DNA of 64,000 nt from the IMG/VR virus record IMGVR_UViG_2541047680_000004; one strand, given 5' to 3'. Source of the DNA: a virus. Taxonomy: Duplodnaviria; Heunggongvirae; Uroviricota; Caudoviricetes. Below, piece by piece: positions 15,006 to 33,800 of this stretch. Within the stretch, counting starts at the first letter, position 1. Every line of letters begins with the position of its first letter. Made by a program: the position numbers and the translations under genes. The notes under the pieces were generated by a model that saw nothing but the letters and a program-made list of their open reading frames with translations, was not told the DNA's origin and ran no database searches.

Positions 15006-15105
15006 TCTTATATGTGATATAGCCTAAATGCCTACGGCTGTGGTGTAAAGGTTTAATGATAGGTACATAGGTGGGCTTAATAACAAAAAACCCGCCGTAG
15101 CGGGT

Positions 15106-15879
15106 TTATTGATTCATAGATCGTTTACTCAGAATGTTCACTATATGAGTACAAGCACCTGGGGTGAGATTGATTTTATTAGTCCCCCACTCTTCACGTC
15201 TTCGCATCTGGCCTCCGTCAGACTTACCGATATCCCACGGAATAAAACCACTTACGCCACAGGCATCCTCACCCAATTCCTCTATAAAATTTTCGTTCTT
15301 CGTATCGTAAATTTCGACCAGTCCATGTTTGCGCATACTCACAGCCCAAAGAGTTGCGCCTTTTATCGTCTGTAACGTATCGCAAACCAAGTACTGATAC
15401 TTATCTACGAGATAAAGGTAAGCAAAACTTGCGATGCCTAATCCCATATAATCAGCATGAGTAAAAACCCCTCTAATCTGCTTGGCGCTGACTTTTACTC
15501 CAGATTTATCCTTGATTGGAAACTCGCAGTAGGCCACGCGGAAGACTGTTTGGACTGGCTGCCCCACATGCAACTTGTAGGATTCAATTTCTGCTCCTAT
15601 CTCAAGAGGTGTGTAACCAGCACGTTTGAGTCGCTTAACTTCCTGCTCTTGGTAATCAGGATCACATGACTCAAGACACTCGCCAACAATACAGCGTTCA
15701 TAGGCCGAATCAACAAGCTCGTATTCGGTAAATCGAATTAGATCGAAACCTCGGGAGATAAAATAGAACTCACCGAGAGCGATAATTCTCGTCGCTCTCG
15801 GCATTTCAGACAAGACCTTGCTGTAGTCTTCTATTTCAGGGATTAATCTGTTCGCCTGACCAATTAGAGATGGTGCCAT
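15106..15879 (-). CDS. hypothetical protein
   Basis: 257-aa ORF followed by bidirectional terminator (cccgccgtagcggg). Confidence 0.4.
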   Translation of the reverse strand: MAPSLIGQANRLIPEIEDYSKVLSEMPRATRIIALGEFYFISRGFDLIRFTEYELVDSAYERCIVGECLESCDPDYQEQEVKRLKRAGYTPLEIGAEIESYKLHVGQPVQTVFRVAYCEFPIKDKSGVKVSAKQIRGVFTHADYMGLGIASFAYLYLVDKYQYLVCDTLQTIKGATLWAVSMRKHGLVEIYDTKNENFIEELGEDACGVSGFIPWDIGKSDGGQMRRREEWGTNKINLTPGACTHIVNILSKRSMNQ

Positions 15880-16283
15880 GAAGTATTCTGTGCCGTTGAT
15901 GGTTCCATATCATCGATTTTACAGAATTTCTTCATAAAAGACTCTACAACTTGTTTGATTCGTGAAGAAATATCACGATCTAAACACTTCAAGTCAGGAT
16001 ATTGTTCAGCAACATCTAAAACAAAAGAGGTTCGTTTACCGTTAGCGACAACCTCGGCCAACGGTTTAACCAGTGACGTAGAATTAGAGACCTTTTCGGC
16101 ACGCGCCACATCGCTCTTAAAAGTGACGATGAAGTGCTGGCGGTTAGCTGATTCACGGCACAACATACGTCGCACTTCTACTGCGTCTTCACTGTTGTGA
16201 ATACGCATAGGAAAGCTGTCGATAACCGCAGTATTGGTGCGGATCGTCTGCATAGAACGCGTATTGTCATGATAATTTAGCAT
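15864..16283 (-). CDS. hypothetical protein
   Basis: 139-aa ORF. Confidence 0.4.
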   Translation of the reverse strand: MLNYHDNTRSMQTIRTNTAVIDSFPMRIHNSEDAVEVRRMLCRESANRQHFIVTFKSDVARAEKVSNSTSLVKPLAEVVANGKRTSFVLDVAEQYPDLKCLDRDISSRIKQVVESFMKKFCKIDDMEPSTAQNTSWHHL

Positions 16284-16492
16284 ATATCCACCTTAGCCGT
16301 TAACACAAGTGTCATTGCGGCACCCCTCTCGGGGTTGAAGGCTACGAGAATGCGTAGCCTGTATGTGCCCACTTACGTGGATGCCTAATAAATCTACATC
16401 AAATTACTAAATGATTCAACATGAGCTTGAGTGAACAGGCGTGTATATGAGTGAAGATGCCATCTTTAGGATAAAAGGTAAACTGAGATCAA

Positions 16493-16717
16493 TCATCGAC
16501 TCAGTTCAGGTGCCCCCCACTCACACAGCCTTTCACCTATCGTATTGTGGATAAGCAACTGTCGCTCCGTTTCCTCAGTCATAAAATCCTCTCTACTCAC
16601 ATAGATAGGATTTGCAGCATCGCAGAATAGCACGCCTGGAGCCTGCGTCTTAATCACGCACCCATTTATCAAACAGCTCGCGATGAACACCAGAGGCATC
16701 TTTTTGCCGCACTTCAT
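16493..16717 (-). CDS. o-spanin lipoprotein (Rz1-like), starting inside Rz in another frame
   Basis: MKCGKKMPLVFIAS-C lipobox; ORF begins within the Rz-like gene and extends past its stop. Confidence 0.45.
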   Translation of the reverse strand: MKCGKKMPLVFIASCLINGCVIKTQAPGVLFCDAANPIYVSREDFMTEETERQLLIHNTIGERLCEWGAPELSR

Positions 16718-16902: not shown

Positions 16903-17622
16903 TTAGACCATCCCTTTCTGGTGTTTTCTTACCTGCGACCAGGCAATGAATCCTGCCACAACAATAGTGGCAATACCGAAGATGATGCGTACTGTATCCC
17001 CGCTAGAGATATGACCTTGTGCTTTATCCATAGCAGCGGAAACCTGTGGCATAACATCGGCCAGCTGTGCCAGACCAATACCTGCTGTAACAGTTGCGCC
17101 TGCGGTTTCTTTAGTTACAGGAACAGCCTTCACGGTTTTCACCGGCTTAACGACGCCAGCTCGACGCAGACCTTCCTCAATAACTTCTGCCGCATACCAG
17201 GTGTTCAGCGTTTTTAGCGGACCTCGCCCATTCTCATGGCGAATGATTGCCTCAACCAAAGGTCGAAGGATGTCGTAATCATGCAGATCGATGATCATGT
17301 CTGCGGTTACACCAACGGCTTTAGACACCTCATTAATGTAGGCGTCAGTGTTGTTTTCATTCGGCGGTGCCCAACGTTCAATAACTTCACGAATGGTATC
17401 GATACTTGAGCCGTCTTTTGCGCGACGTTTGTCGTGGTAGGTAATTAGAGTCACCGCCAGCGCACGAATCCCCCAAACAGGGTCTTTAAACGTGCAAAAG
17501 CGCGGTTCGTCTGGATTCGCAACCAGACCTTGCCACGGTGATCCTTTATCAAGATTACCGGGGTTATTATTACGAATGCCTCTCGGAGTCTTCATCCTTG
17601 ATCTCCTGTTATTGCAGTCCAT
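16903..17622 (-). CDS. putative endolysin with C-terminal hydrophobic segment
   Basis: Position between holin-like and spanin genes; GIRNNNPGN motif region; C-terminal IIFGIATIVVAGFIAW helix. Confidence 0.45.
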   Translation of the reverse strand: MDCNNRRSRMKTPRGIRNNNPGNLDKGSPWQGLVANPDEPRFCTFKDPVWGIRALAVTLITYHDKRRAKDGSSIDTIREVIERWAPPNENNTDAYINEVSKAVGVTADMIIDLHDYDILRPLVEAIIRHENGRGPLKTLNTWYAAEVIEEGLRRAGVVKPVKTVKAVPVTKETAGATVTAGIGLAQLADVMPQVSAAMDKAQGHISSGDTVRIIFGIATIVVAGFIAWSQVRKHQKGMV

Positions 17623-17944
17623 TTTTTACGCCATACGCGGCTAACCCCAAAAGCAGTGCAGTAATAATGAACGACGTTATTTTAGAAACAATGCCGCCAA
17701 AGAACCCACTGGAGATGGAATCTAACCGGTTAAGGAGTTTGTCCAGATTGGAGTGTTGAATACTATGTTGCGCCGGGGTCATATCACCAAAGTAGGTTTT
17801 CAGCTGATCATTGACCTCTTGGCCAATTTCTTCACGTAGCTCTTTACCTAATTTACCAACAACCTCCCGAGCAACGATCGCGGCAATACGCTCAACTTGC
17901 TCTGTTGTAACGCCCGCCATCTCGTTCGACATATTTTCCTCCAT
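17609..17944 (-). CDS. putative holin / lysis membrane protein
   Basis: 111-aa protein with C-terminal TM helix (ITSFIITALLLGLAAYGV) immediately upstream of endolysin. Confidence 0.4.
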   Translation of the reverse strand: MEENMSNEMAGVTTEQVERIAAIVAREVVGKLGKELREEIGQEVNDQLKTYFGDMTPAQHSIQHSNLDKLLNRLDSISSGFFGGIVSKITSFIITALLLGLAAYGVKNGLQ

Positions 17945-18013: not shown

Positions 18014-18244
18014 TCATTCAGCATTGCAACGGACTGATGAGAAAGCACCTACTCCAACCCATCGCCAGTTATAGATGCTACCCGCTTTGTATAAGGTATA
18101 GTCGTTCACTTTTTTAACAGCATATATGGGTATGACTGTCTCCTGTCCACCAATGATAGCCTCACCATAACATATAGGTGTCGGCAATTTCTGGCAGCCA
18201 GTAAGAGAGAGAACAACAGCTATTGTTAGAAATAATCTTTTCAT
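18014..18244 (-). CDS. small lipoprotein, Cor/Llp-like superinfection-exclusion candidate
   Basis: 76 aa, lipobox LSLTG-C, located between the tail fiber genes and the lysis cassette as cor/llp are in T1/phi80/T5-type phages. Confidence 0.5.
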   Translation of the reverse strand: MKRLFLTIAVVLSLTGCQKLPTPICYGEAIIGGQETVIPIYAVKKVNDYTLYKAGSIYNWRWVGVGAFSSVRCNAE

Positions 18245-18254
18245 CGTTTACTCA

Positions 18255-18863
18255 TCAGTTATACAGATTTCTATTTATTACCGGTACTCTGCCATTTACA
18301 CTAAAACTATGGCCGCCATTAAGTTGGTTTACGAATATAGAGCTAACAGTATTTCCATATGCCGCATATCCATAAACCATTGTCATGGCCCCGCCCGGTA
18401 CTGGAACCGCGAACACATTTGCATATGTTGGGATTATCGCTGGCGGGTAATCAAAAACATGCCCTCCAGAACTGTTCCACTCCGTATTATTAAGAAAGGT
18501 AAATGAAAGTGGGATATTTGCCGTATTATAGATCTCCTCTCCTCGCGCATTGAAAAAACTCATGCCCCAAGTTTCTTTTTTGGCTATACCTTTCGAAAAT
18601 ACGTATATCGTGGCACTAGAGTCGCTACCCTGACCTCCGAAACTGTAAATCACCTGGTTGTTACGCACTATTCTGTTGGCTATTAATGAAACAGCTTTCG
18701 AATAGGCAACAAAAATCATCGGTGAACGATCTGGAGATATTTGGGTGTTAAACTCTGTCCCGCCGGACAAAGAAACAACCTGCTTTCTCTGAAAAACGAT
18801 AGGAGACAAAGAAGGAGACATCCAGACCTTCCCGTCAGATCGATATATCTTGCTTCCGTACAT
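18255..18863 (-). CDS. hypothetical tail-fiber-associated protein
   Basis: 202-aa ORF, start overlaps stop of the upstream gene (TAATG). Confidence 0.4.
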   Translation of the reverse strand: MYGSKIYRSDGKVWMSPSLSPIVFQRKQVVSLSGGTEFNTQISPDRSPMIFVAYSKAVSLIANRIVRNNQVIYSFGGQGSDSSATIYVFSKGIAKKETWGMSFFNARGEEIYNTANIPLSFTFLNNTEWNSSGGHVFDYPPAIIPTYANVFAVPVPGGAMTMVYGYAAYGNTVSSIFVNQLNGGHSFSVNGRVPVINRNLYN

Positions 18864-19117
18864 TATTTTTGAAAAACCAATATGTTTAAATTACCACTAG
18901 CTCCAGACCACGAAATGGTATTTCCAGAAACCGTAAGACTTGTGTATTTTCCATTGGTTACGTCCATTATGTAATAGTCGATTCCCAATCCCGCCTCAAC
19001 CTCATATGTTCTACTTCCTGAACCAGAGGGAGTAAAATAATCGAGGTAATAAACAGGGGCCAACGCATCGACCATCTCCTGTCTTGATGGCGACCAAACC
19101 TGTGCACCATAGCTCAT
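18863..19117 (-). CDS. hypothetical protein (tail-fiber-associated)
   Basis: 84-aa ORF directly downstream of the long tail fiber gene. Confidence 0.4.
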   Translation of the reverse strand: MSYGAQVWSPSRQEMVDALAPVYYLDYFTPSGSGSRTYEVEAGLGIDYYIMDVTNGKYTSLTVSGNTISWSGASGNLNILVFQK

Positions 19118-19177
19118 AAATATATCCTTATACTTTTAAGCAGGGGCTGGTTTAGTTCCAGCCCCGATTGAAGTTGT

Positions 19178-22100
19178 TTATTCTTTAGGTGAATTTAACT
19201 TCGTTTCAAGCTCCTCAACCCTTTTGGTCAATTGCTGAATATGATGAATGAGTGGTACAACCAAACGCTCATACATCACTCCTTCAGCGACCATACCATT
19301 TGAGGAAATATCTCCTGGAGAATCATTATTTGTTGGTTCACGCCAATGGACATATTGCGGGGCAATCTCACCAACCTCTTCAGCAATAAGGCCGTAATAC
19401 CCCCAATCCTTTCGGTCACCTCGACAAATTGAACGATACCAAACAGGTCTTAATGACAAAAGTTCATCAGCATATCGATCTTGTAATGTTTCAATATCCT
19501 TTTTATAGCGCCTTGAAGATGTTGAACGCCAAACTGTATTGATACCTGGGTTTGGATCAATGTACATATTGGCACCGCTAGTAGTTGTGCCAATATCCCA
19601 TATAGCAAACCCTCCACTACCGCCTGATTTGACAACCAGTGTTTCAGCAATAATATCCAGGTTGCCACTATAGCCTGTCAGTGATGATCTGCTTGCATAG
19701 GAACTTAGAAGGTTTGTTACCTCTGTTTTCGTATAAGCATTAAGGTTAGCCGCAGTCAAAGTAATATCGGCAGAGCCATCAAACGCCACACCAGCAATTT
19801 TCCTTGCTGTCTGCAATTTTGTGGCTGTTGCGGCATTACCAGTAGTATTCTGATTACCGGTTGTATTCACACCAGGGATTGAATCCTTAGCGGTATATAC
19901 CTGCGCCCACGCTGACCATGCCGCATCAGTGGTATCTCTTCTGGAGCGAATGAAAACCGGCGCATGTGCACCGCTCGTACCACTCCAGCCAATAAGCAAC
20001 TCGCCCTCACCAGCAGCACTCGCACCTTTCATGTGCAATACGTTGCCATACGTGGTCGGGTAGCTATTGTTGTACGCCTCGTACATTTGAATGCCAGCAG
20101 TACCTTGAGTAGAACCGCTTAAAGCCGTAACTCGACCACGAGAAACCAATGTATTAATATTGATATCACCTGAACCATCAAACTTAACACCATTGATGTT
20201 TCTCGCTGTTTGCAACTTCGTAGCTGTTGAAGCATTGCCATTCAAGCTACCATTTACGCCACCAGTAACATTTAGTCCATTACCAATAGACACAACACCG
20301 CTGCTATTATTAATTATAATCGGTCGCAAACTGTTCCATGAACCTAACGTATCTCCTGATGCTGTTAGCATGAAATATGTGCTGCCGCCGTCATTACGGA
20401 TAAAGAACCCGTAGTTACCGTAAGCAATGCGGAAACCATTTGCATATTTTGAAACGATCTCACCAGAAGACGTCAACCCTCCAGATAATGTGCCACCTGA
20501 AAGCGGTAATGCTCCTACATCAGAAGCTGTTGGTTTGTTTCTAGTGTTATAAGAACGACGCCAGCCTGGCGCATAATCACTCCCATTGTACACATAAATA
20601 AATTCCGCATTATTAACACCACCATGACCTGATGTTGTTGCCGTTGTAACACGAATAGTGTAGTGGCTTGTTGCCTTATTACTAAACACCTCAATCACGG
20701 AACCAGATAGATCGATCCTACCGCAACCAGTGTCGTCTATATAATTATTGTTGGCGTAAGTCCATGAGCACCGTGCGATCCAATGTTTGTTTGTAAATGC
20801 CCCCTGATTGTTTAGCCAAGTTATAAATTGAGCAGTCGTAAATGCCGTTCCGTTACCACTATTTAACCATCCAGCGGCAGCGGTTGGTGCGTTTATATCA
20901 GCCGGCTGAGGCATAAATCCAGTCGTGTAAACCTGCTCCCAACCACTTTCAAAACCATAGCCATCTCTTGAGGAACGGTAGAACAGACCACCATTTTTAT
21001 AGTGAGCTTTAATTTGAAGCGTACGGCAACTACCTACACCGGTATAAAAGTTGGCAAGAATATAACTGGCGCCTGTTCTAGTTACATTGTAAGCACCAGA
21101 TTCAGCATTCCACGGCACGCCACCATCAGCATCCGCATATGACCCTGTTGCCCTTCTTGCGAAAGCGGCAACATGCGCAGCGGTTAAAGTGATATCAGTA
21201 GAACCATCAAATGGAACACCGGATATTTTTCTTGCAGTCTGAAGTTTTGTAGCAGTTGCAGCATTACCAGTGGTGTTCTGATTACCCGTAGTGTTTACAC
21301 CTGGAAGGTTGATATTTGCAGAACCGTCGAAACCAACTCCACCGATAGATCTTGCCGTCTGCAATTTCGTTGCTGTACTTGCATTACCATTTAATGTTCC
21401 GGTGATCCCACCAGTAACAGACAACGGACCTGAAACTGTTCCTCCGGTTGTTGGCAGTGCTCCAATATCTAACGGCGTCGGTTTCTGATGTGTGCTATAC
21501 ATCGTATAAACAACACCATCGGTAACGCTGGAAGGCTTACTCGCTGAATATGTTGGCGATGTATAAACAGAAACTGACGCATTTGCAGTACAATCCCAAT
21601 GGATATTTACACTCGTCGCATAATTGCCAATTTCAACGTAAATATCATATGTATCGCCGGATGTGTTGATCCAGGCGAAATTCGTTAATCCGACAGCTGT
21701 ACGCTTCCACAAAGCACCTGTAATCCCTTTGGGGTTTCCATTGCCTGCTCGTAGAACCAGTTCTGAAATGCCTGCCTGATGTGGGGAGCCGACGTTGTAA
21801 CCAGCGCCACCAATCAATGCGATGTAAACGATGGAACTCGCTTGTGGCATTGTAACAGTAGCCAGTTTGAACCACCCGGCCCCGCCAGAGAAAGACATCG
21901 TTATTGAATTTAAAGTACCAATATCTTTCGGCGTTAATGTGATATCCGCAGTCAGTGCTTTCCCGTTAATTTTTCGGTTAGATGGCACCCTGCTGTTCGC
22001 ATTGTCATTGACTACTTTAACTGCTTTTGGCGTTGCGGCCAGCGATTCACTGGTGCTGTCGACAGCACTGCTAAGTTTCACAACACCTTTAGTTGTAAGG

Positions 22101-23476
22101 CTTGCGTCTTCCATCGCAACTGCACCGGCAATCTCTTCAGCACGATCAGCAGCAGCTTCCGCACGGGTCGCAGCGGATTCAGCAGCAGTTTTGCTCTGAG
22201 ATGCTGCCGTCGCACTGCCTGCCGCCTCTGTTGCTTTCGTGGATGCCGTCGTGGCGCTGCCCTTCGCTGCTGACGCCTGTCTGGTCGCCTCATCTTTTGA
22301 AGCAGACGCAGATGATGCCGATGACGCTGCCGAACTGGCGGACGATGCGGCTGCCGTTTTTGAGGATTCTGCACGGGTTTCCGACGCTTTCGCGTTCGTT
22401 TCGGATGTCTTCGCTGCGGAAGCAGACCTCGCTGCTGCGCTGGCCTGTTCAGTGGCTTCGCCAGCCTTCGTTGTGGCTGTTGAAGCAGATGATGCGGCAC
22501 TTTCTGCCGATTTTCCGGCGGCGGTGGCACTGGCTGAGGCCTGCCCGGCACTTGTTGACGCGGCACTGGCAGACGACGCAGCCGCTGTTTTTGAGCCTGC
22601 CGCAGCCGAGGCGCTCTGTCCCGCTGCCGTTTCAGAAGACCTGGCGTTCGTCTCGGACGTTTTTGCCGCCTTCGCGGAATTTCCTGCCGCCGTTGCCGAG
22701 GAAGCGGCATTACTGGCGCTCGAGGCTGCGCTCGTTTCTGATGATTTCGCTGCCTCTTTTGAGGCCGCCGCATCCCGGGCTGAGGTGGCAGCTTCTGACG
22801 CCTTCGTGGTCGCGGTGGATGCAGAAGTGGCTGCAGATTTTTGTGACGCTGCAGCATTCGTTTCAGACGTTTTCGCGGCACCGGCACTGGTGGCCGCCGC
22901 GCTTTTTGAGGACTCTGCAGCGGATGCACTTTGAGACGCTTGAGAGGCTTTTTCTCCAGCGGTATTGGCGCTTTCTGCTGCTGCGGCAGCACTGGCCGCC
23001 GCCTCACGAGCTTTGTCGCCAGCAGCATCAATCGCGTCAGTGTTATTTTTATACCACTCAACGTTTTCGTTGTGCTCGTTGACGATCTGCATTAGCGGCT
23101 TAACGGTCACTTCTGTACCGTCTTCACGCTCGATTGTCACCTCATCCAGAGCAGTCAACCAACTGCGCATGGACTTGGAATCAGCCGACATACGCGACAT
23201 TAGTGCTGTAAAGCGCGCGCTAAACTGTGTTAAGTCGCCTTCATAGGTCGTAATGATTCGGCACGGAACTTCAGACTGAGTTTCGCCGGTATAGGGTTCT
23301 GAGAGAACAATGTTCGTATCACTGGTTACGCGCTTGATCTCATACAGCTTATTGTCGGGGCCAATGACGATCATCCCCGGCAACACACCATTAGCTGTTA
23401 CGTTCCAGGCTGTCCCTGCCCCAACCAGAGTATTGCTGCCCTGTGTAAATGTGATAGTACCTTCCCTGTACCACAT
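19178..23476 (-). CDS. long (side / L-shaped) tail fiber with C-terminal S74 intramolecular chaperone domain
   Basis: 1432 aa; Ala/Ser-rich stalk; four GNAATATKLQTAR-type fibre repeats; C-terminal auto-processing chaperone-like segment. Confidence 0.8.
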   Translation of the reverse strand: MWYREGTITFTQGSNTLVGAGTAWNVTANGVLPGMIVIGPDNKLYEIKRVTSDTNIVLSEPYTGETQSEVPCRIITTYEGDLTQFSARFTALMSRMSADSKSMRSWLTALDEVTIEREDGTEVTVKPLMQIVNEHNENVEWYKNNTDAIDAAGDKAREAAASAAAAAESANTAGEKASQASQSASAAESSKSAAATSAGAAKTSETNAAASQKSAATSASTATTKASEAATSARDAAASKEAAKSSETSAASSASNAASSATAAGNSAKAAKTSETNARSSETAAGQSASAAAGSKTAAASSASAASTSAGQASASATAAGKSAESAASSASTATTKAGEATEQASAAARSASAAKTSETNAKASETRAESSKTAAASSASSAASSASSASASKDEATRQASAAKGSATTASTKATEAAGSATAASQSKTAAESAATRAEAAADRAEEIAGAVAMEDASLTTKGVVKLSSAVDSTSESLAATPKAVKVVNDNANSRVPSNRKINGKALTADITLTPKDIGTLNSITMSFSGGAGWFKLATVTMPQASSIVYIALIGGAGYNVGSPHQAGISELVLRAGNGNPKGITGALWKRTAVGLTNFAWINTSGDTYDIYVEIGNYATSVNIHWDCTANASVSVYTSPTYSASKPSSVTDGVVYTMYSTHQKPTPLDIGALPTTGGTVSGPLSVTGGITGTLNGNASTATKLQTARSIGGVGFDGSANINLPGVNTTGNQNTTGNAATATKLQTARKISGVPFDGSTDITLTAAHVAAFARRATGSYADADGGVPWNAESGAYNVTRTGASYILANFYTGVGSCRTLQIKAHYKNGGLFYRSSRDGYGFESGWEQVYTTGFMPQPADINAPTAAAGWLNSGNGTAFTTAQFITWLNNQGAFTNKHWIARCSWTYANNNYIDDTGCGRIDLSGSVIEVFSNKATSHYTIRVTTATTSGHGGVNNAEFIYVYNGSDYAPGWRRSYNTRNKPTASDVGALPLSGGTLSGGLTSSGEIVSKYANGFRIAYGNYGFFIRNDGGSTYFMLTASGDTLGSWNSLRPIIINNSSGVVSIGNGLNVTGGVNGSLNGNASTATKLQTARNINGVKFDGSGDININTLVSRGRVTALSGSTQGTAGIQMYEAYNNSYPTTYGNVLHMKGASAAGEGELLIGWSGTSGAHAPVFIRSRRDTTDAAWSAWAQVYTAKDSIPGVNTTGNQNTTGNAATATKLQTARKIAGVAFDGSADITLTAANLNAYTKTEVTNLLSSYASRSSLTGYSGNLDIIAETLVVKSGGSGGFAIWDIGTTTSGANMYIDPNPGINTVWRSTSSRRYKKDIETLQDRYADELLSLRPVWYRSICRGDRKDWGYYGLIAEEVGEIAPQYVHWREPTNNDSPGDISSNGMVAEGVMYERLVVPLIHHIQQLTKRVEELETKLNSPKE

Positions 23477-23567: not shown

Positions 23568-26500
23568 TTACAGAAGGCCAATTCTTACTCGTAGGACGTT
23601 GTTATCGTCATAAACGTCAATCCGCTGACCATTTATGACCAGTCGCCCATTACCCCCGCTATTACCGTTGATCTCAAGCGTTCCATTTTTGCCGAACCGC
23701 CATCCAGATCTACCGCTAACAAAATTGGTAGATTGCAGATCGCCTACTTTTGCATTGGTGATTGTGCCATCCTTGATATACGCACCATTCATATAGGCGA
23801 TACTGTTTTCGATAACAAATGGCGTGGTGATCTTCCCGTTAACAGAGTTGACCAAACCAAACCTGTCAGCCTGCACCAAAAACTGAGAAAGGCCAGTGGT
23901 GTCGATACCAAGCGCAATACCAGCAACATACTTCTGCCCTCCGCTCGTTGAAGTTTCCATTTTCAACGTCCACGCGGTTGACACTTTTTTGTTGGTATCA
24001 GCAATAGCTGTTGCCTGCTGTTGAATTGTCGCGGTATTTCCATCCACCTCTGCTTTCAGAGTATCGATTCGCCCACTCAGAGCATTATCTGCCTGCGTTC
24101 TCGCTGTCGTTTCAGTTGTTACCGCCGCGGAAATGTTGGCTGCCGTTTGAGACTCTAAGTTTGTGATTTGAGTCGCCAATGCAGCATCTTGCTCTGTACG
24201 CGTTTTCGTTTCGGTTGCTACAGCCGCTTTAATATCCTCTTTGTATTGAGAGGTCAGCTTGGTGATCTGAGACGACAACGCCGAGTCAGCATCAGTTCGA
24301 GCCTGCGTTTCAACTGCAACGGCCGCACTAATATCTTTCGCTGTCTGTGCTTTTAAACTTGAAACCTCTTTTGTTAAAGCGGTATCACCATCAGCACGAG
24401 CCGTTGTTTCTCTGGCAAGAGATGCCTCGAGATCATTAGCTTTTGCTGTAAGAGACGAAATCTGAGTGGACAATGCACTATCGGCATCAGTCCTTGCCTT
24501 TGTCTCTACAGCAACCGCTGCGGCAATATCAGTTCCGGTTTGTGCTCGCAGGCTGTTAATTTCTCGTGAGAGCGCCTGGTCAGCACTTGCTCTGGCCTCC
24601 TGCTCCTGAGTGATGGCAGCGGATATATCACCGTCAACCTTTGACTGAAGCTGGTTTATTAGTTTGGCTAACGCAGAGTCCCCGCTTGCTCGGGCCTCCT
24701 GCTCACTACGTATTGCAGCAGAAATATCATCATCAACCTTTGCCTGAAGTTGGGTGATCTGGCTTGCCAGAGCCGAATCTTCCGTTGCTCGGGCTTCTTG
24801 CTCTTCCTTAATAGCTGCGACGATATCGTTGCTTACTTTCGACTCAAGCTGAGTGATCTGTGTCGTCAGAGCTTCATCGGCAGATGTGCGAGCCTCCTGC
24901 TCTGTACTAATCGCCGCGCTGATATCTCCTTCAAACTTAGATTGCAGCTGAGTGACACGCTTTGCCAACGCTTCATCGCCATCGGCACGAGCGGTGGACT
25001 CTTCCAGAATACTGGCCTTAATGTCTTCGCCAATTTCTACGCGAATTTCCTCAACCTTCGTGGCCATTGCAGACATATCATCAGCAAAGGTTTTCTGTGT
25101 TGTTGCGATCTTCGCGTTATTGACCATCTGCTTGTGCTGGTCTTCATCTTGACGAAGAGCCAGGTCAATATTTGTTTTGGCTAACGCCTCAATGTTCGTA
25201 GTCAGTTCTGCACTGGCACGATCGACCTCTGCAACCGTCTTTTTCATTTCTTCAACGGCAGCGGAGCTTTCCTCTACCGTTGACTGCAACACTTCCAGTT
25301 GTTTAGCGTTTGCAGCATCGCCTTCAACACGAGCCTCGCTTTCCTTAGCAATAAGAGCCGCCGCTTCATCTCTTGCAGCCTTTATTGCCTCGACTGTATT
25401 AGCGAGAGCTTTATCGTGTTCAGATACGGTGTTTTCGATTTCAACAATTGCAGCATCAGTGGCATCAATTTTTTCAAACGCTTCATTGACCTTGTCGATC
25501 GTTGCCGAAACCTCACCTTTAAGCTCGGTTTGTGCGTTCTCCAAAGCATCGCTACGCTCGTTGAATTTTATTTCAAAACCCGCGAGGTTATCGCTGAACT
25601 GCTTATCTAATTCAGCTATATCTTCCTTAACGTCGTTTACCGACCCCTCCAAAGATTCGACGCTCTGGTTGATATGCTCATTTAACTCGTCAACTGCTTC
25701 TTGAGAGGCTTTGCTGTTGATGTCCTCAAGCAGAGCCTGACCAAGCTCGGAAGATGTAATTTTGCCAGCCAGGAACGACAGTACATCGCGAGTTGTCGCC
25801 TCTGTACCCAAGTTTGAGTTCGGAGGGCTTAACATACCTCGCTTGTTCGATGCTCGAACCCAGTAATACCACGTTTCGCTATCCCCAAGACCAGCATGTG
25901 TAAAGGTGGTGCTTGCAGACTCTGCGATCAGTTTCGCCGTATCCAGATTGTTGGTCTGGGATGCGTAAACATTAATGTGATCAAGGTCTACCGAATCTGG
26001 ATTAACCCAATTCAGTATCACATTACGATAGTCTCCAACGGCCGTTAATGACGTTGGGGCATCCGGCGGTGTCATTGTGCCCAACACCTGATAAACGGTA
26101 CTGATAATCTCTGTTTTTTTACCGTTGAATGAAACCGCATACAGTTGGAAGTCGTAGCGTCCATTCTCCGCGACATTAACGATTTCGTATTGCTCTTCGG
26201 TTACACGCGCCGATTGCCAGTTCGATACATTGTTTTCATCAGAACGTCGCCAACTGATCCAATACTCTGGAGATTTTCCTTCCCATGTTGCAGTCAGTTT
26301 TACTGACAGGTTGCCCGGGCTTGAGAGATAAGTCCCTTCAGTGATTTGCAGATTAGATGGCTTGGAGTAAGTTGGGTCCAATACCGTCGTATTCTGCGGG
26401 ATCAGCGTTGCACCATTGTCGATTGCCTCATATTTAGACGGATTGTTCTCAACAGCGGTGATGTCAAAGCTACCCGGCGTTTCCCCCTGCGCGATGTTAA

Positions 26501-28298
26501 CGATGCGAACGCGCATAGGTTCGAGATCTGGTTCTGTAATTGTCCAGACACCGTTCAAAACAGGCGTTTCCGCTGACGACAGGGCTTTTGAAAACGTAAC
26601 CTTTGTTATGTTTTCGCCAGTTTCAAGAACATCGCGTTCAACGATTTTGCCTTCCTGATTCAATATCCGAATAAAGCTGCCGCTTTTAGCTAACGACACA
26701 GGCGCATCGAGAGTGATGCTGTTTTTGGTAAACTCCACAATTCGACCGGAGTTACGTTTACCTGCACGATATTTGTTCTGAATCAGAACGGTTTCACCGG
26801 GCATCAGAAATGAGGCGTCTAAGCCGGCAGTAAATGTAATTACATCCGACTCCATTCTGGCGGTATACAAAAGCCACAAACCAACTCGGTGAGCCTGGCC
26901 TCGGCTTGTACATCCAAATGCTACGACTTCTGTTTTACGCTCACCATAACGGCGCATTGCGTCCTGATCTTCAACGTACTCGATGTTTTGCTTATAACCG
27001 TCCTCCTTGTTGTTGTAGGTTACGAGCGCAACGGATGGGCGATCTTTACGCGCAGAACCTTTATAGGTAAACAGTCCATCTTTGACGTTGGAGTTGGTAA
27101 ACATCATTACCGGATCTGATGGGCTATCCTGCATGATGTTAACCATGCCACCAGCCCAAAACACCATGCCGCGGAATGCACCGGCAATATCCTGAATTAA
27201 TCGGTATGCGTCTTGTCGACTGGTGATCTGCGTATTGATTGCAAAGCGTTTCTCTTTACCCCCAAAGCCATCATCGACCTCTTCGTCACAATATCGACCA
27301 ATCTGGTAGAGCTGGCCGAGGTCAATCATGGATTCCGACACAAATTGCCCAAGACCATACCGAGTATTGGTAAGCAAATCGTAGAGAATCCACGCAGGGT
27401 TTGAAGAAGACAACAGCTTAAAAGTACCGTCCCATACGCCGACATAAGTATTGGTGTATTCGTTGTAGTTTGACGGTACTCGGATTTTGATACCGCGCAC
27501 CAAATACGAACGGGAAGGCATTGTGCTACCAAACTGCTCTGAATTGACCTTCAAGCCAACAAGAGCAGAGTTAGGGTAGTTCATTGGCGTGTCGACAATC
27601 TCACCGATGGAATCAACCCATGTGTCGTTGTAGAGGTACTGGCTACTATTATCATCTGTAAGACGAATCACCCTAACCTTGTATGCACGACCAGGCTTAG
27701 GCAGTTTCAGCTCATAGCTACGGTAATACACGCCGGTTTTCTTTGCCGTTAGCGTGATATCAACGCTTTTCTCACCTTCTGCCACTACATCAGAAAATGT
27801 TGCGTCTGCGTTGGCGATCTGGAATTTGTACTTCACCGTAGTGCCATTTGTATCGCCAGAGCTTTTATCAACGCTACGTAAAGAGGGGAATTTCATGATG
27901 ACACGAACGCGATCAGCTTCATCGTTATCGATTGAAACCGTAACGTCGTGTGTTTTTTTAAGCTGAATATTTACGGACTTAGGCGTTTCGACAAAATCAA
28001 AACCAGCCATTGGCGTCTGATCTTGTGAGCCGTCACGAAAATCCCATGTAATACCGCTGAAGTTGGAAGAGCCATCTTCATTCAAGATCGGTAAATCGTC
28101 GATGAAGATCGACTTTGCGCCATTTACCAGGCCACCGATAACCCCCTCGCCAAGAAGGTCGAGGATGGCTGCCATAGCACGAGAATTGACAGTATCATCA
28201 GCTTCAACCGGGGTACGGCTGGAGCTTTTACTTTTCTTGCCACCAGCACCGGCAATAAGAAGCGGTAATTTTTTCTTCTTGAACTGTTCCATGTCCAA
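23568..28298 (-). CDS. central tail fiber / host specificity protein (lambda J-like) with expanded coiled-coil repeat insert
   Basis: 1576 aa; blocks matching lambda J (PNSALVGLKVNSEQFGS, FGCTSRGQAHRVGLWL, C-terminal VAGIALGID...FLV region); about 14 tandem 28-aa repeats. Confidence 0.85.
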   Translation of the reverse strand: MDMEQFKKKKLPLLIAGAGGKKSKSSSRTPVEADDTVNSRAMAAILDLLGEGVIGGLVNGAKSIFIDDLPILNEDGSSNFSGITWDFRDGSQDQTPMAGFDFVETPKSVNIQLKKTHDVTVSIDNDEADRVRVIMKFPSLRSVDKSSGDTNGTTVKYKFQIANADATFSDVVAEGEKSVDITLTAKKTGVYYRSYELKLPKPGRAYKVRVIRLTDDNSSQYLYNDTWVDSIGEIVDTPMNYPNSALVGLKVNSEQFGSTMPSRSYLVRGIKIRVPSNYNEYTNTYVGVWDGTFKLLSSSNPAWILYDLLTNTRYGLGQFVSESMIDLGQLYQIGRYCDEEVDDGFGGKEKRFAINTQITSRQDAYRLIQDIAGAFRGMVFWAGGMVNIMQDSPSDPVMMFTNSNVKDGLFTYKGSARKDRPSVALVTYNNKEDGYKQNIEYVEDQDAMRRYGERKTEVVAFGCTSRGQAHRVGLWLLYTARMESDVITFTAGLDASFLMPGETVLIQNKYRAGKRNSGRIVEFTKNSITLDAPVSLAKSGSFIRILNQEGKIVERDVLETGENITKVTFSKALSSAETPVLNGVWTITEPDLEPMRVRIVNIAQGETPGSFDITAVENNPSKYEAIDNGATLIPQNTTVLDPTYSKPSNLQITEGTYLSSPGNLSVKLTATWEGKSPEYWISWRRSDENNVSNWQSARVTEEQYEIVNVAENGRYDFQLYAVSFNGKKTEIISTVYQVLGTMTPPDAPTSLTAVGDYRNVILNWVNPDSVDLDHINVYASQTNNLDTAKLIAESASTTFTHAGLGDSETWYYWVRASNKRGMLSPPNSNLGTEATTRDVLSFLAGKITSSELGQALLEDINSKASQEAVDELNEHINQSVESLEGSVNDVKEDIAELDKQFSDNLAGFEIKFNERSDALENAQTELKGEVSATIDKVNEAFEKIDATDAAIVEIENTVSEHDKALANTVEAIKAARDEAAALIAKESEARVEGDAANAKQLEVLQSTVEESSAAVEEMKKTVAEVDRASAELTTNIEALAKTNIDLALRQDEDQHKQMVNNAKIATTQKTFADDMSAMATKVEEIRVEIGEDIKASILEESTARADGDEALAKRVTQLQSKFEGDISAAISTEQEARTSADEALTTQITQLESKVSNDIVAAIKEEQEARATEDSALASQITQLQAKVDDDISAAIRSEQEARASGDSALAKLINQLQSKVDGDISAAITQEQEARASADQALSREINSLRAQTGTDIAAAVAVETKARTDADSALSTQISSLTAKANDLEASLARETTARADGDTALTKEVSSLKAQTAKDISAAVAVETQARTDADSALSSQITKLTSQYKEDIKAAVATETKTRTEQDAALATQITNLESQTAANISAAVTTETTARTQADNALSGRIDTLKAEVDGNTATIQQQATAIADTNKKVSTAWTLKMETSTSGGQKYVAGIALGIDTTGLSQFLVQADRFGLVNSVNGKITTPFVIENSIAYMNGAYIKDGTITNAKVGDLQSTNFVSGRSGWRFGKNGTLEINGNSGGNGRLVINGQRIDVYDDNNVLRVRIGLL

Positions 28299-30836: not shown

Positions 30837-33800
30837 TTAGTTACGTTGAGTGTTTGGGTTGAGTGATCCGCCAGGGCGTTTCTCTTGAGCGATAGTCTCA
30901 AGCGCGATTGCTTTCATCCGTTGAGCGGCATTGTTCCATATGCTTTCTGTATCGCCGGATTCTGTCGTGCTACCGTCACTATGGACGTTGATCTCAATTG
31001 ATACAGGAGAAAGAACATTTCCGCCTCCACTCATACCATCGGTACTGAGCGTTACAGGGATTGTTCGGCCATCAGGCAATGGAACATACGCCTCATTCAT
31101 AGAACCTTCCCCAAACAACGCTAATTGAGGCGAGTTAGCAATACCGCCTTTCTGGTATGCCCCGAGCGGGATCACGCCGTCTTTTCCGAATATTCCTCCA
31201 TTTGCAAACTTCGGGATTGCAGGAATGCCTTTAGTTCCGTCAGCCACACTGCTGGTTGCGGTTTTAGCAGAGCTTGATGTCACGCTGTCGAAACCACCGC
31301 CAGCCCAAGCTGAAACAAGACCAGATGCAACCGTTGCTCCAAAACTCAACCACTTATTACCAGAGCCGGAAGCATTAGCTCCAAGCATTGCAAACGCGGC
31401 AGACAGCGCGCCGGTAACAGAGCTGAGGTTCTGCATCGAGAAGATGGAGTCCTTCACGGCTTTTGTCTCGGCATCTTTGGCTTCAGTGCTATCAAATAGC
31501 CCTGATACCCAGCTACCAATCGCATTTGTTGCAGTGCCAATTGCGCTGGTGGTCTGCTGTGTTGTTTGCCCCAATCCAGTTACCGAACTGGACGTCTCCT
31601 TCGTGGCTTCTCCTACCGACTTGTCGCCGTTAACAGTGTTGCCCATTCGTACCCCTTGATTGGCAACGGCGGAAGCAACCCCGGTCAGCAAATTACCACT
31701 CTGTGAACTACCAGCTGCGGTGGTTCCCATCCCCAACATGTTCATTAGAGGCAGCGTGATTTGCGACTTCACGACCATATTGGTGATATCTTTCAAAATG
31801 GACTGAGATAGGCTGGAGAAGCTCATCTTCCCGTTAATAACGAAATCAGTCAGGACATCAGTTAAGCCACTAAACAAATCAGTCCAGGTGCTTTCGATCT
31901 GCTCTGCCAAGTTTTCGTATTCCAGTGCCAACTTCTGCGTCGCAGTCCCCGTCTCTTTAATAAGCGCGGTATTGCCAGCAGCAATCAGTTGATTGATTTT
32001 CTTTGTATAAAGCGCCACAACTTTAGGATCAGACGCCTTATCACGAAGTTCTATCAACGCTTTGAGATTGCGGTTGTAGGTGTCTTCGAAATCAGCAACT
32101 TTCTCTTCGCGAGACGGCGTATAGCCAGCACTAATAATGGAATCCGCCTCCGGTGCCCAAGTGGAGATCATCTGCTCAACATTGCGGCGATTAAACATCT
32201 CGCGATATTCAGGTGTCGCATTTTTGAGGTCTTCAAGACGTTTTTTCGCCTTGTCGATCATCTCTTGAGTGATGAACTCGTTAGGAACCGCATTAGCCAA
32301 ATCTGTCAGCGATTTCGTTGTATCGCGAAGAGACTGATCAAACGATACCGTAGCCTTAGAGCTTTCACCCATTTGCCCCATAAGCTGATCGGCTTTGTCC
32401 AGAGCCTTCTGGTATCCGGCTGCCAGTTTCTGTTGCGCTGCCTGTTCCTTCTTGGCCGCACGCTGCGAGGCGTTAGCTGATCGTTGGGCTGCTTTCTCGG
32501 CAGCTGCTGCATCCTGTTCACGAGCTTTAGTTAGTGCAGCAATGGCTGCGGCACGCTCTTCATCGCTCATTTTCTCCAGAGAGCTGGCGCTGGATGCTTT
32601 CTGCAAATTAAGCTGCGTCTTGAGTTGTTTAGGCCCAATAATCGGCTTACCTTCGAAGTCCATCATCGGAGTGCCGTCAGGCAAAGTACGCTGATAAGTC
32701 GCAGAATCCATCTGGTTTCGCATATATTGCGCCAACGCCTTCTGAGCAGCTTTATCAGTTGTACCTAACCCAAGAACAGTCCCCTGGTTTGACATTACGC
32801 CCTTACCAGTTTTGGCCGCGTTATCTCTCTCGAACTCTGCCTGAGTAAGTTCCTGAGCAACGGCTTCCAAATGCTCCTGATAACCACGAATACTGCCTTG
32901 CAGTTTCTGGATTTGCTCGGTATTGCCATCCTTTTTGGCTTTTTCAAGCTGATCATTAAGAGTCGCGATTTGCTTCTCGGTCGCATTCTTACGAGAAGAA
33001 AGTGAATCAACCAGTTTTTGCGCAGGCTCCAGATAGCTTTTGTTTACCGTTTCACGTAACGGTGCCAATAGCTTGTTCTTTTCGTCATCTGAAAGTGAAC
33101 CGTCATCATTGATTTTCTGAATCTTATCCAGAGCCTCCTGCCGGGCTTTCACGAATGTTGCCGCGAAAATCTGGTTTTCCTCTCGAATTTTCTCAATCTG
33201 AGATTCGGCAGCCTCTTTAGCCAAACGCTTTGCTACAGCGCCGTCACCAAGAGCTATCGTGCCGGTTATCTTTTGATACTCTTCCTGATTTTTTTTCAGG
33301 CGTGCTTCGATGTCAGCCTTCGACTCTTTGTGAGTAATAACACCGGCAGAGTTAGATACGTAATTAACGCCCTCACCATTTTTTAATGCTCGTTGATCAG
33401 CGAGAATCTGCTTTTCGAGCTTTTCTGCGCGATCGGCCATCTGTGCTCGTTTGGCCGCTGTCATCGCCTCTGGTATTTTCCTAATCTCGTCAACGACCTT
33501 TGAAGTTTCGCTGCGGAGCATGGTCATGTACGTGATTAGGCCAGCAACAGCTACAGTGGCAACTGTAAATGCTGCCCCTATAGGGTTTGCTGCAATGAAC
33601 GCCGTTAATCCCGCAAAAGCGCCTTTAAGCCCCGTAATCGCCCCACGGATGGCGAAAATAAGAGAGGGGATCGGAGCCAGCCCCATACGTGCCGCACGAT
33701 TGAATCGAGTTACTGCTGTAGCACCGAGATTAAATGGAGTCTGTATGGCGGTCGCCATCGTGGCAAAGGTGCTAACCATCTGGCTCCCAGCGCCAACTAC

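Follow-up and report, generated by a model that had tools for sequence, protein, structure and literature searches.

A T1/N15-type gene trio with a Cor-family lipoprotein behind the side tail fibre of an SSU5-like phage-plasmid

Described relatives of the trio

Three gene families occur in the same order in N15 (genes 22, 23 and 24, the last being cor), T1 (ST32, ST31 and ST30, the last again cor), HK022, phi80 and ES18, and in phages of the N15/T1 type the trio lies directly after J, the gene of the central tail tip. T1 carries cor on the opposite strand, and in N15 the first two genes, hereafter the pair, precede the side fibre gene. The first family (N15 gp22, T1 ST32) is known as “Ig-like” or “outer membrane protein” and the second (N15 gp23, T1 ST31) as “hand-like” or “membrane associated”, and databases label the pair accordingly as “outer membrane” and “membrane associated” proteins. 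The authors of PMC13164509 obtained no fold match for the T1-type proteins and proposed that they act in exclusion. Elsewhere, the Ig-like and hand-like proteins have been modelled as tail-spike caps binding FhuA or BamA, and the small gp22-type protein is claimed to form an Ig-like beta-sandwich resembling the C-terminal domain of lambda J (PMC12309495). Receptor specificity correlates with the receptor-binding protein (RBP) loci that lie behind gpJ (PMC8594841; bioRxiv 10.64898/2026.04.02.716166).

The pair is also found in the Stx phages (VT2-Sakai orf62-63-64; phi24B type), which are podoviruses that encode it directly after the tail-spike protein and follow it with lom; these loci usually have no nearby cor, and four of 33 have one 3.2 kb upstream. 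According to a citation in PMC12309495, Stx phages use BamA. In the BtuB-type phage FritzSarasin (Bas04), the genes bas04_0025/0024/0023 form a locus with the lipoprotein first that converges on J, and the lipoprotein is a remote relative of Cor, scoring 18 bits, under the cut-off of the Cor family model NF047972. The herni-type Cor was considered as a marker of BtuB phages and rejected, as the herni locus is arranged like that of T1 and has an HK75-type protein.

Two further systems share part of this design. In T5, pb5 and Llp act on FhuA by a common logic, in which an RBP on the central fibre is accompanied by an adjacent receptor-disabling lipoprotein; Llp is small, contains an internal disulphide and inactivates FhuA from the periplasmic side by a mechanism that has been solved structurally (PMC9586334). 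The RBP of Oekolampad (Bas18) has 321 aa, lacks an Ig-like partner gene, is transcribed toward J and targets LptD, which is not a TonB-dependent transporter; its lipoprotein Rtp45 acts on LptDE by a mechanism that has been solved structurally (bioRxiv 10.1101/2025.07.07.663478).

The window studied here, the whole 64,000-nucleotide stretch that was analysed, is from an SSU5-like Escherichia coli phage-plasmid, 99.7% identical to pECOH89 over the 2.2 kb compared. The true orthologues of its trio are SSU5_023/024/025, which occupy the equivalent position between fibre and lysis genes at amino-acid identities of 69%, 75% and 59%. At the nucleotide level the SSU5 trio is 67.8% identical and diverges more than the adjacent holin-endolysin segment (84.5%). 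SSU5 additionally has a separate fibre adhesin gene (SSU5_022), after which its pair is located, and a different fibre C-terminus; it is reported to use the LPS core via the fibre adhesin gp22, as cited in PMC12312913. The sister element Cyrano lacks the trio at the fibre site; its one pair is located in the early region, some 55 kb away from the fibre gene.

Layout of the locus and membership in the Cor family

All three genes that the initial annotation had placed behind the long tail fibre are present, on the minus strand, as confirmed open reading frames: an 84-aa gene (18863-19117), a 202-aa gene (18255-18863) and the gene for a 76-aa lipoprotein, cor (18014-18244). The stop of the first and the start of the second overlap by one base as TAATG, within the coding-strand junction ...CAAAAATAATGTACGGA, an overlap also present in SSU5, N15 and T1. 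The cor start follows 10 nt downstream of the 202-aa gene, and 69 nt separate the end of cor from the holin gene (17609-17944, minus strand; phrog_5093, E=8e-69, and holin in the Cyrano and SSU5 annotations), which bounds the cassette downstream, where the lysis genes follow. A search for a promoter by which the lysogen could express cor gave nothing convincing, the 2 kb examined holding two weak promoter-like sites where 4.4 would be expected by chance. The trio has a GC content of about 41%, slightly under that of its neighbours, and shows no clear sign of foreign origin. Given the PHROG profile E-values reported below and the identical gene order in SSU5, N15 and T1, we regard the three as real genes rather than chance open reading frames.

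Upstream lie the side fibre gene (19178-23476, minus strand, 1432 aa) and the gene of the J-like central tail-tip protein (23568-28298, minus strand, 1576 aa). The 84-aa gene begins 60 nt past the stop of the fibre gene, and this spacer holds an 8-bp, G+C-rich hairpin without a U tract (19143-19165, minus strand) whose predicted fold has a minimum free energy of -18.4 kcal/mol (z=-3.5; 0 of 200 shuffles equally stable). A terminator scan did not call the hairpin; in T1, a terminator is annotated at the corresponding J/ST32 junction. Whereas the trio of N15/T1-type phages, like the RBP loci of small siphoviruses under the BASEL definition, lies directly after J, here the 4.3-kb side fibre gene separates J from the pair.

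The initial annotation had called the 76-aa protein Cor- or Llp-like. The first half of this proposal is borne out, since the protein passes the NCBIfam model NF047972 with 80.7 bits (cut-off 31; residues 1-74 against model positions 1-77 of 78) and is preceded by the same two genes as cor in N15 and T1; it also matches the phrog_1119 profile (E=2.2e-30). The alignment to Cor that had been proposed as a check showed the protein to be 42% identical to the Cor of N15 and 28% to that of T1, compared with 59% to SSU5_025 and 58% to the Cor of Stx phage phi367. We identified 193 homologues in phages, the majority of which are labelled Cor or superinfection exclusion, and the RefSeq (PGAP) name in near-identical plasmids is cor. 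The product starts MKRLFLTIAVVLSLTGC and has a signal peptide with a lipobox LTG|C (MKRLFLTIAVVLSLTG followed by C17) with Gln in position +2; it reaches 17.3 bits with Pfam LPAM_1, slightly under the cut-off of 20. Its mature domain is flanked by two further conserved cysteines, Cys25 and Cys73. In an alignment of five homologues C17, C25 and C73 are invariant, and among 59 homologues C17 and C25 remain invariant and C73 nearly so. On this sequence evidence, the 76-aa protein is a true member of the Cor superinfection-exclusion lipoprotein family.

The likeness to Llp holds as an analogy but not as sequence similarity. The single Cor sequence gave no match to T5 Llp at E up to 10, and the Cor profile reached Llp (8a60_B) with E=0.15 over residues 1-44, mainly the signal peptide, so the two are barely related in sequence; a homologue of pb5 is likewise absent here. 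An AF2 model of Cor (pLDDT 86.6) returned nothing below E 0.24 in a Foldseek search of the PDB. Its insignificant matches were Tudor/SH3-like barrels, with Rtp45 absent and Llp outside the top 50, although a TM-score of 0.69 against Llp has been reported for a T1-type Cor model (PMC13164509).

The pair and the central tail tip

A word-indexed homologue search recovered only five close relatives, and the depth of the comparisons below comes from a profile built from phage homologues. The 202-aa protein, all-beta, matches phrog_425 over nearly its whole length (E=5.5e-49; residues 1-201 against positions 3-223 of 224), and an alignment of seven family members has 13 invariant columns. The 84-aa protein, also a small beta protein, matches phrog_557 over residues 1-78 (E=1.3e-24) and is 69% identical to SSU5_023, 37.5% to bas04_0024, 34% to CYRAN_88 and 28% to N15 gp22. 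By sequence and synteny, the two are orthologues of N15 genes 22/23, T1 ST32/ST31 and SSU5_023/024, highly diverged from the N15/T1-type proteins (23-28% identity). The 202-aa protein is also 20-27 residues shorter than these, with a C-terminal half unlike the FhuA type. Outside SSU5, both pair proteins have their closest relatives in FritzSarasin.

The Ig-like gene stands immediately upstream of the hand-like gene in all 80 viral loci compared, and 50 of these 80 loci lack a Cor within 6 kb, which makes the pair independent of Cor. In pECOH89 as a whole, the pair, cor and the J tip are each present exactly once, and no second copy of the pair was found in the window or in the rest of pECOH89. 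An AF2 model of the 202-aa protein, of moderate confidence (pLDDT 73.7), has as its best fold match a solved siphophage receptor-binding protein (9rpt_C), with low TM-scores of 0.30/0.25. Structure comparison is the sole connection to the Oekolampad RBP, as the hand-like family profile shows no similarity to its sequence, and sequence searches of the PDB with each of the three proteins returned nothing meaningful.

The J-like protein is the proposed docking partner of the pair. It scores 231.7 bits against a J-tip HMM, is about 31% identical to N15 gp21, T1 gp33 and the FritzSarasin J over the last 200-300 residues, and is 99% identical to that of Cyrano over a C-terminal part of 919 aa. Without a lambda-type receptor domain of its own, it ends in ...LVINGQRIDVYDDNNVLRVRIGLL, a tip conserved among J proteins with separate RBPs. 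Over the final 24 residues it shares 58% identity with the C-terminal end of the Stx-phage tail spike whose gene directly precedes that phage's pair, and the motif is common to every J or spike examined that accompanies such a pair, Stx podoviruses included. Because this end motif is shared with the N15, T1 and Stx tips, we interpret the pair as a receptor-binding module of the tail tip rather than an accessory of the side fibre. Its place directly after J in N15 and T1, its distance from the fibre in Cyrano and the fibre's own chaperone domain also assign it functionally to the central J-like tip and not to the adjoining fibre. Of the earlier suggestions for the pair, that of “receptor-binding accessories” is supported.

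Taken together, we consider it likely that the trio represents in this element the cassette known from T1, N15, HK022 and phi80, in which the pair forms a tail-tip receptor-binding module and Cor excludes. The 84-aa and 202-aa proteins would be made late, in a fixed ratio set through the TAATG overlap, and would join the virion as soluble proteins by docking on the J-like protein at its conserved C-terminal tip. The role of terminal receptor-binding protein is predicted for the 202-aa protein; published support for such a role in the N15-gp23 type consists of correlation and modelling. The 84-aa protein is its predicted, translationally coupled adaptor or partner. The long side fibre would make the first cell-surface contact, after which the 202-aa protein would recognise a protein of the outer membrane, most probably a TonB-dependent transporter (FhuA or BtuB). 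Cor would be exported and lipidated at Cys17, sit on the periplasmic face of the outer membrane and there bind a receptor of this kind, which incoming phages could then no longer use, as has been shown for Llp with FhuA and Rtp45 with LptD. Points against this reading are the 4.3-kb fibre gene between J and the pair, the moderate model confidence and low TM-scores of the 202-aa protein, the exclusion role suggested in PMC13164509, and the case of SSU5, which is reported to use the LPS core and is not known to use a protein receptor.

Receptor specificity and alternative readings

The signals for the receptor conflict, since Cor resembles the Cor of FhuA phages and the C-terminal half of the 202-aa protein is closest to that of a BtuB phage. 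Although the FritzSarasin protein is only 28.6% identical overall, this rises to 40% in the C-terminal half, compared with 16-17% for the FhuA-type proteins of N15 and T1. A possible variant of our main explanation, rather than a full alternative to it, is therefore that Cor is not matched to its own pair: the pair would target a BtuB-like or other transporter, and Cor would be a lysogenic-conversion gene whose block of FhuA shields the plasmid-bearing cell from unrelated, FhuA-dependent phages. The 84-aa protein is likewise nearer to its BtuB-type partner (37.5% against 28%), and the nearest Cor outside SSU5, at 58%, comes from Stx phages, the users of BamA, in which cor lies 3.2-3.7 kb from the pair, behind a fibre adhesin gene. 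We nevertheless regard a mismatch as somewhat unlikely. Cor follows the pair directly in all 23 SSU5-type loci with enough flank, and the same linkage in T1, N15, HK022 and phi80 accompanies use of a common receptor (PMC13164509); moreover, 40% identity over 70 residues is weak ground for naming a receptor. The remote Cor relative at the BtuB-type locus (18-22 bits) implies that the specificity of the family can shift, and this Cor may have been retargeted.

More tentatively still, and with slightly less likelihood, the SSU5-type cassette may be a hybrid of a BtuB-phage-like pair and a FhuA-phage-type Cor, with host range and exclusion swapped as separable cassettes. Phage-plasmids that are otherwise 97-99% identical carry a single pair in one of two places some 55 kb from each other, either beside the fibre gene with cor or among the early genes without it, and identity to Cyrano (94.8% from 16522) ends at 18015, one base off the end of cor. 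If the hybrid were real, either Cor-family lipoproteins would have acquired another TonB-dependent transporter as their target, or the phage would keep out phages of a class other than its own.

It is very unlikely that the pair assists Cor-mediated exclusion from a position at the membrane, a role which the database names of the two proteins hint at and PMC13164509 proposes, and which their constant linkage to cor in FhuA-dependent phages (PMC13164509) would favour. Neither protein has a signal peptide, a lipobox or a hydrophobic segment (maximum Kyte-Doolittle values of 0.54 and 1.24), and a PADLOC search gave no defence-system match. The 50 pair loci lacking a Cor within 6 kb and the best fold match, a solved receptor-binding protein, also speak against such a role, as does the absence of the Cyrano pair from the genes reported as lysogen-expressed (PMC9928086).

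Least probable of all is that the pair encodes assembly chaperones or a tip adhesin, tfa- or gp38-like, of the preceding side fibre, the “fibre assembly” role also entertained in the initial annotation: a position 60 nt behind the fibre gene is the usual site of tail-fibre assembly genes and in SSU5 this junction is occupied by a fibre adhesin gene, but Pfam, PHROGs and NCBIfam gave no Tfa or adhesin family match for either protein, the fibre has its own C-terminal intramolecular chaperone domain (Peptidase_S74, 5.5e-6, alongside Gp34_trimer, 1.5e-29, both Pfam), and the pair directly follows J in N15 and T1, precedes the side fibre gene in N15, follows a separate adhesin gene in SSU5 and sits far from the fibre gene in Cyrano. 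The side fibre itself is a second host-range determinant with a mosaic C-terminal half, its gene being 98% identical to that of Cyrano solely from 21186 upward and patchy at 19696-21185.

Distribution and significance

SSU5-like phage-plasmids are common in Enterobacteriaceae. The trio occurs in 68 of 5,426 complete E. coli genomes, where it is always plasmid-borne, and in 126 plasmid records from Escherichia, Shigella, Enterobacter, Salmonella, Citrobacter and Kluyvera. The pair was seen in three forms: the E. coli type, the SSU5 type (about 68% nucleotide identity) and the Cyrano type at its different locus. The pECOH89 lineage carries blaCTX-M-15, located outside the window.

As a copy of a known T1/N15-type cassette the trio is ordinary, and these findings leave current concepts unchanged. 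The host-range requirements of SSU5-like elements are described as poorly understood (PMC9600943), and the trio is probably what sets their host range. The pair and its allelic forms offer a concrete target for predicting or engineering which strains are open to resistance-carrying phages, and expression of Cor could alter the sensitivity of carrier cells to other phages, colicins and siderophore-linked antibiotics.

Cor and its two coupled neighbours

On the minus strand of the window, three genes encoding proteins of 84 aa (18863-19117), 202 aa (18255-18863) and 76 aa (18014-18244) lie between the side tail fibre gene (1432 aa; 19178-23476) and the holin gene (17609-17944). The initial annotation placed and sized all three correctly, including the TAATG overlap, in which the 84-aa and 202-aa genes have one base in common. 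Matches to PHROG profiles (E-values of 2e-30, 5e-49 and 1e-24), together with conserved synteny in several phages, establish them as real genes. Further genes on the same strand encode the tape measure (30837-35411) and the J-like tail tip protein (23568-28298) before the fibre, and a 239-aa endolysin (16903-17622; phrog_873) followed by the Rz/Rz1 spanins after the holin. The cassette formed by the trio and the phage group are both known, and some of the annotation is already in place: the “cor cassette,” consisting of Cor and these two genes, has been described behind the tail-fibre cluster in T1, HK022, N15, ES18 and phi80 (PMC13164509, citing Wietzorrek 2006), and near-identical plasmids in RefSeq carry the lipoprotein gene under the name cor.

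The 76-aa product carries a signal peptide with lipobox LTG↓C, and its identification as Cor is well founded: NCBIfam NF047972 (“phage exclusion lipoprotein Cor”; cut-off 31 bits) gives it 80.7 bits, and it is 59% identical to SSU5_025, 58% to Cor of Stx phage phi367, 42% to N15 Cor and 28% to T1 Cor. Its lipid-attachment cysteine, C25 and C73 are kept across 59 homologues, in agreement with the internal disulphide described for the Cor/Llp group (PMC9586334). The proposed kinship with T5 Llp (8a60_B) fared less well, as the Cor profile reached it weakly (E=0.15), mostly via the signal peptide, and Foldseek with the confident model of the window Cor (pLDDT 86.6) did not retrieve Llp. A published T1-type Cor model gives a TM-score of 0.69 against Llp, and an AF3 complex confidently places T1-type Cor at the periplasmic face of FhuA (PMC13164509).

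Two features of neighbouring genes were also observed. Endolysin residues 213-231, at the C-terminus (IIFGIATIVVAGFIAWSQV), are strongly hydrophobic (Kyte-Doolittle 2.07), which suggests membrane anchoring with an unusual topology. The fibre gene contains an Ala/Ser-rich low-complexity stretch (22000-23100, minus strand; reaching 62-63% G+C against ~45% around it) that gives rise to long spurious ORFs in the other frames. Between cor and the holin gene, which are usually 60-80 nt apart, one SSU5-type viral contig (L027 6848-8034) has an additional ~1.2 kb.

The pair as candidate receptor-binding proteins

Orthologues of the 84-aa and 202-aa proteins (the pair) are SSU5_023/024, N15 genes 22/23 and T1 ST32/ST31. 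The TAATG coupling is also kept in SSU5, N15 and T1, which suggests that the two proteins are produced at a constant ratio to each other. For SSU5_024 (188 aa; L001 7788-7830, NC_018843.1), the RefSeq start is probably 14 codons short; read from the ATG in the TAATG overlap with the SSU5_023 stop, the protein has 202 aa and is collinear with that of the window.

The receptor-binding role that had been suggested for the pair gains support, as a candidate function, from a structural link to a solved receptor-binding protein and from a conserved tail-tip motif. The AlphaFold model of the 202-aa protein (65 sequences; pLDDT 73.7, pTM 0.74) has its best fold match in chain 9rpt_C, the Oekolampad receptor-binding protein caught on its receptor LptDE (bioRxiv 10.1101/2025.07.07.663478); a profile comparison found no sequence similarity between the two, so the link is structural only. 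A sequence scan detected no signal peptide or hydrophobic segment in either protein of the pair, and both share the N-terminal motif M-x-YG-x-x-[IVW]...(T/S/A)P. Residues 1-20 of the 202-aa model, which cover this motif, have low confidence, as might be expected of a segment ordered only upon docking.

The J protein of the window ends in ...LVINGQRIDVYDDNNVLRVRIGLL. Its last 200-300 residues are ~31% identical to the ends of N15 gp21, T1 gp33 and FritzSarasin J, and over its final 24 residues it shares 58% identity with the C-terminus of the tail-spike protein whose gene lies directly upstream of the pair in Stx phages. By these alignments, a conserved tip accompanies every pair examined, which fits published models in which Ig-like and hand-like proteins cap the tail spike (PMC12309495), as well as a reported co-variation of the GpJ tip domain with the receptor-binding protein that the locus encodes (bioRxiv 10.64898/2026.04.02.716166).

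In plasmid p2-S1-NGR-02-A (L093, NZ_CP145681.1), otherwise 99.6-99.9% identical to the window's element, IS2 interrupts the 202-aa gene (5-bp overlap, equivalent to window positions 18625-18629), so that the predicted receptor-binding protein is naturally knocked out.

Receptor signals and alternative roles

Cor and the relatives of the pair give conflicting indications of the receptor. The Cor family is linked to phages that depend on FhuA (PMC13164509), whereas among characterised proteins the nearest to the 202-aa protein (28.6% identity overall) comes from FritzSarasin (Bas04), a BtuB-using phage. The C-terminal half of the 202-aa protein is 40% identical to the FritzSarasin protein and 16-17% to the FhuA-type N15 and T1 proteins, and the 84-aa protein is likewise closer to its FritzSarasin counterpart. 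The FritzSarasin lipoprotein bas04_0025 (L005 4451-4720) scores 18 bits on NF047972, below the cut-off; this lipoprotein type (L005; also L036 and L037) is a remote relative of Cor that reaches 21-22 bits on our own Cor profile and has the same cysteine pattern. The FhuA and BtuB exclusion lipoproteins may form one diverged family. The bas04_0025 type ends in ...RCN, and the window Cor has this motif close to its own C-terminus (...VRCNAE). SSU5 is reported, in work cited in PMC12312913, to bind the LPS core via a fibre adhesin; this concerns the side fibre and names no terminal receptor. Since the signals conflict, we assign the predicted receptor no further than to a TonB-dependent transporter, most likely FhuA or BtuB. 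A serious variant is that the phages shut out by Cor are not those of the element's own kind but another set.

A role for the pair as an exclusion helper of Cor is argued against by a survey of 80 viral loci encoding a relative of the 202-aa protein, scanned with profiles for the three families and the J tip. The small gene lies directly upstream in 80/80 loci, and Cor is absent within 6 kb of the pair in 50/80, which indicates that the pair is independent of Cor. The order fibre, small gene, hand-like gene, cor, holin characterizes the window/SSU5 type (24 loci; cor in 23/23 with enough flank). Two loci of FritzSarasin type have the remote Cor relative and then the pair, converging on J; the Cyrano type (21 loci) has the pair alone, with neither cor nor J within 6 kb; and the Stx-phage type (33 loci) has a tail-spike ORF and then the pair, with cor 3.2 kb upstream in 4/33. 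The other suggestion, that the pair assists fibre assembly, is rejected on three grounds: a chaperone domain (Peptidase_S74) is built into the side fibre itself; Pfam, PHROGs and NCBIfam searches found no Tfa or adhesin resemblance in either protein; and in other elements the pair comes after J or on its own.

Cassette sites and distribution in phage-plasmids

The 2.2-kb region around the trio is 99.7% identical to E. coli plasmid pECOH89 and, likewise, to dozens of other non-mobilizable plasmids of 100-115 kb, and about 68-85% identical to Salmonella phage SSU5; these identities mark the window as a piece of an SSU5-like phage-plasmid. A 2.2-kb query (from the end of the fibre gene through the trio into the lysis genes) matched 377 plasmid records, 126 of which contain the trio: 73 at ≥95% identity, from Escherichia and Shigella, and 53 at 60-80% (SSU5 type), from Enterobacter, Salmonella, Citrobacter and Kluyvera. 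Among complete E. coli genomes, 68 of 5,426 carry it, always on a plasmid.

On both flanks of the cassette, the window matches Cyrano, a phage-plasmid of E. coli LF82, at 95-98% identity. Similarity ends at 18015, one base off the end of cor, and resumes fully only at 21186, inside the fibre gene (19696-21185 being mosaic); Cyrano has the holin gene right behind the fibre gene. Its only pair, the diverged CYRAN_88/89, sits ~55 kb away among early genes, without cor, in a 1040-bp segment (L003 5621-6660, OV696614.1) that replaces 121 bp of pECOH89 (L010 9120-9240) between a CYRAN_87 homologue (189-aa gene) and a DUF4942 gene. This pair is not listed among lysogen-expressed genes (PMC9928086). 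Across all of pECOH89, the small gene, the hand-like gene, cor and the J tip each occur exactly once, and the site used in Cyrano holds no pair. In these sister phage-plasmids, the cassette is thus seen to occupy either of two alternative sites, as judged by alignment, and the presence of a single pair per element, whichever the site, fits an essential virion function.

Another swappable accessory site lies at 15065-16521, between parA and the spanin genes. Of its two ORFs (15106-15879 and 15864-16283), SSU5 resembles only the second, and that only in part (16048-16353); Cyrano has no similarity to either and carries a KacT toxin-antitoxin pair in their place.

What we add to this known cassette is modest: a structural link that joins gp23-type proteins to a receptor-binding protein of solved structure, a conserved motif at the tail tip, and two alternative sites for the cassette. 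As pECOH89, near-identical to the window, bears ISEcp1-blaCTX-M-15 (L092 3703-6096, outside the window), the probable host-range module described here belongs to an ESBL-gene-carrying phage.
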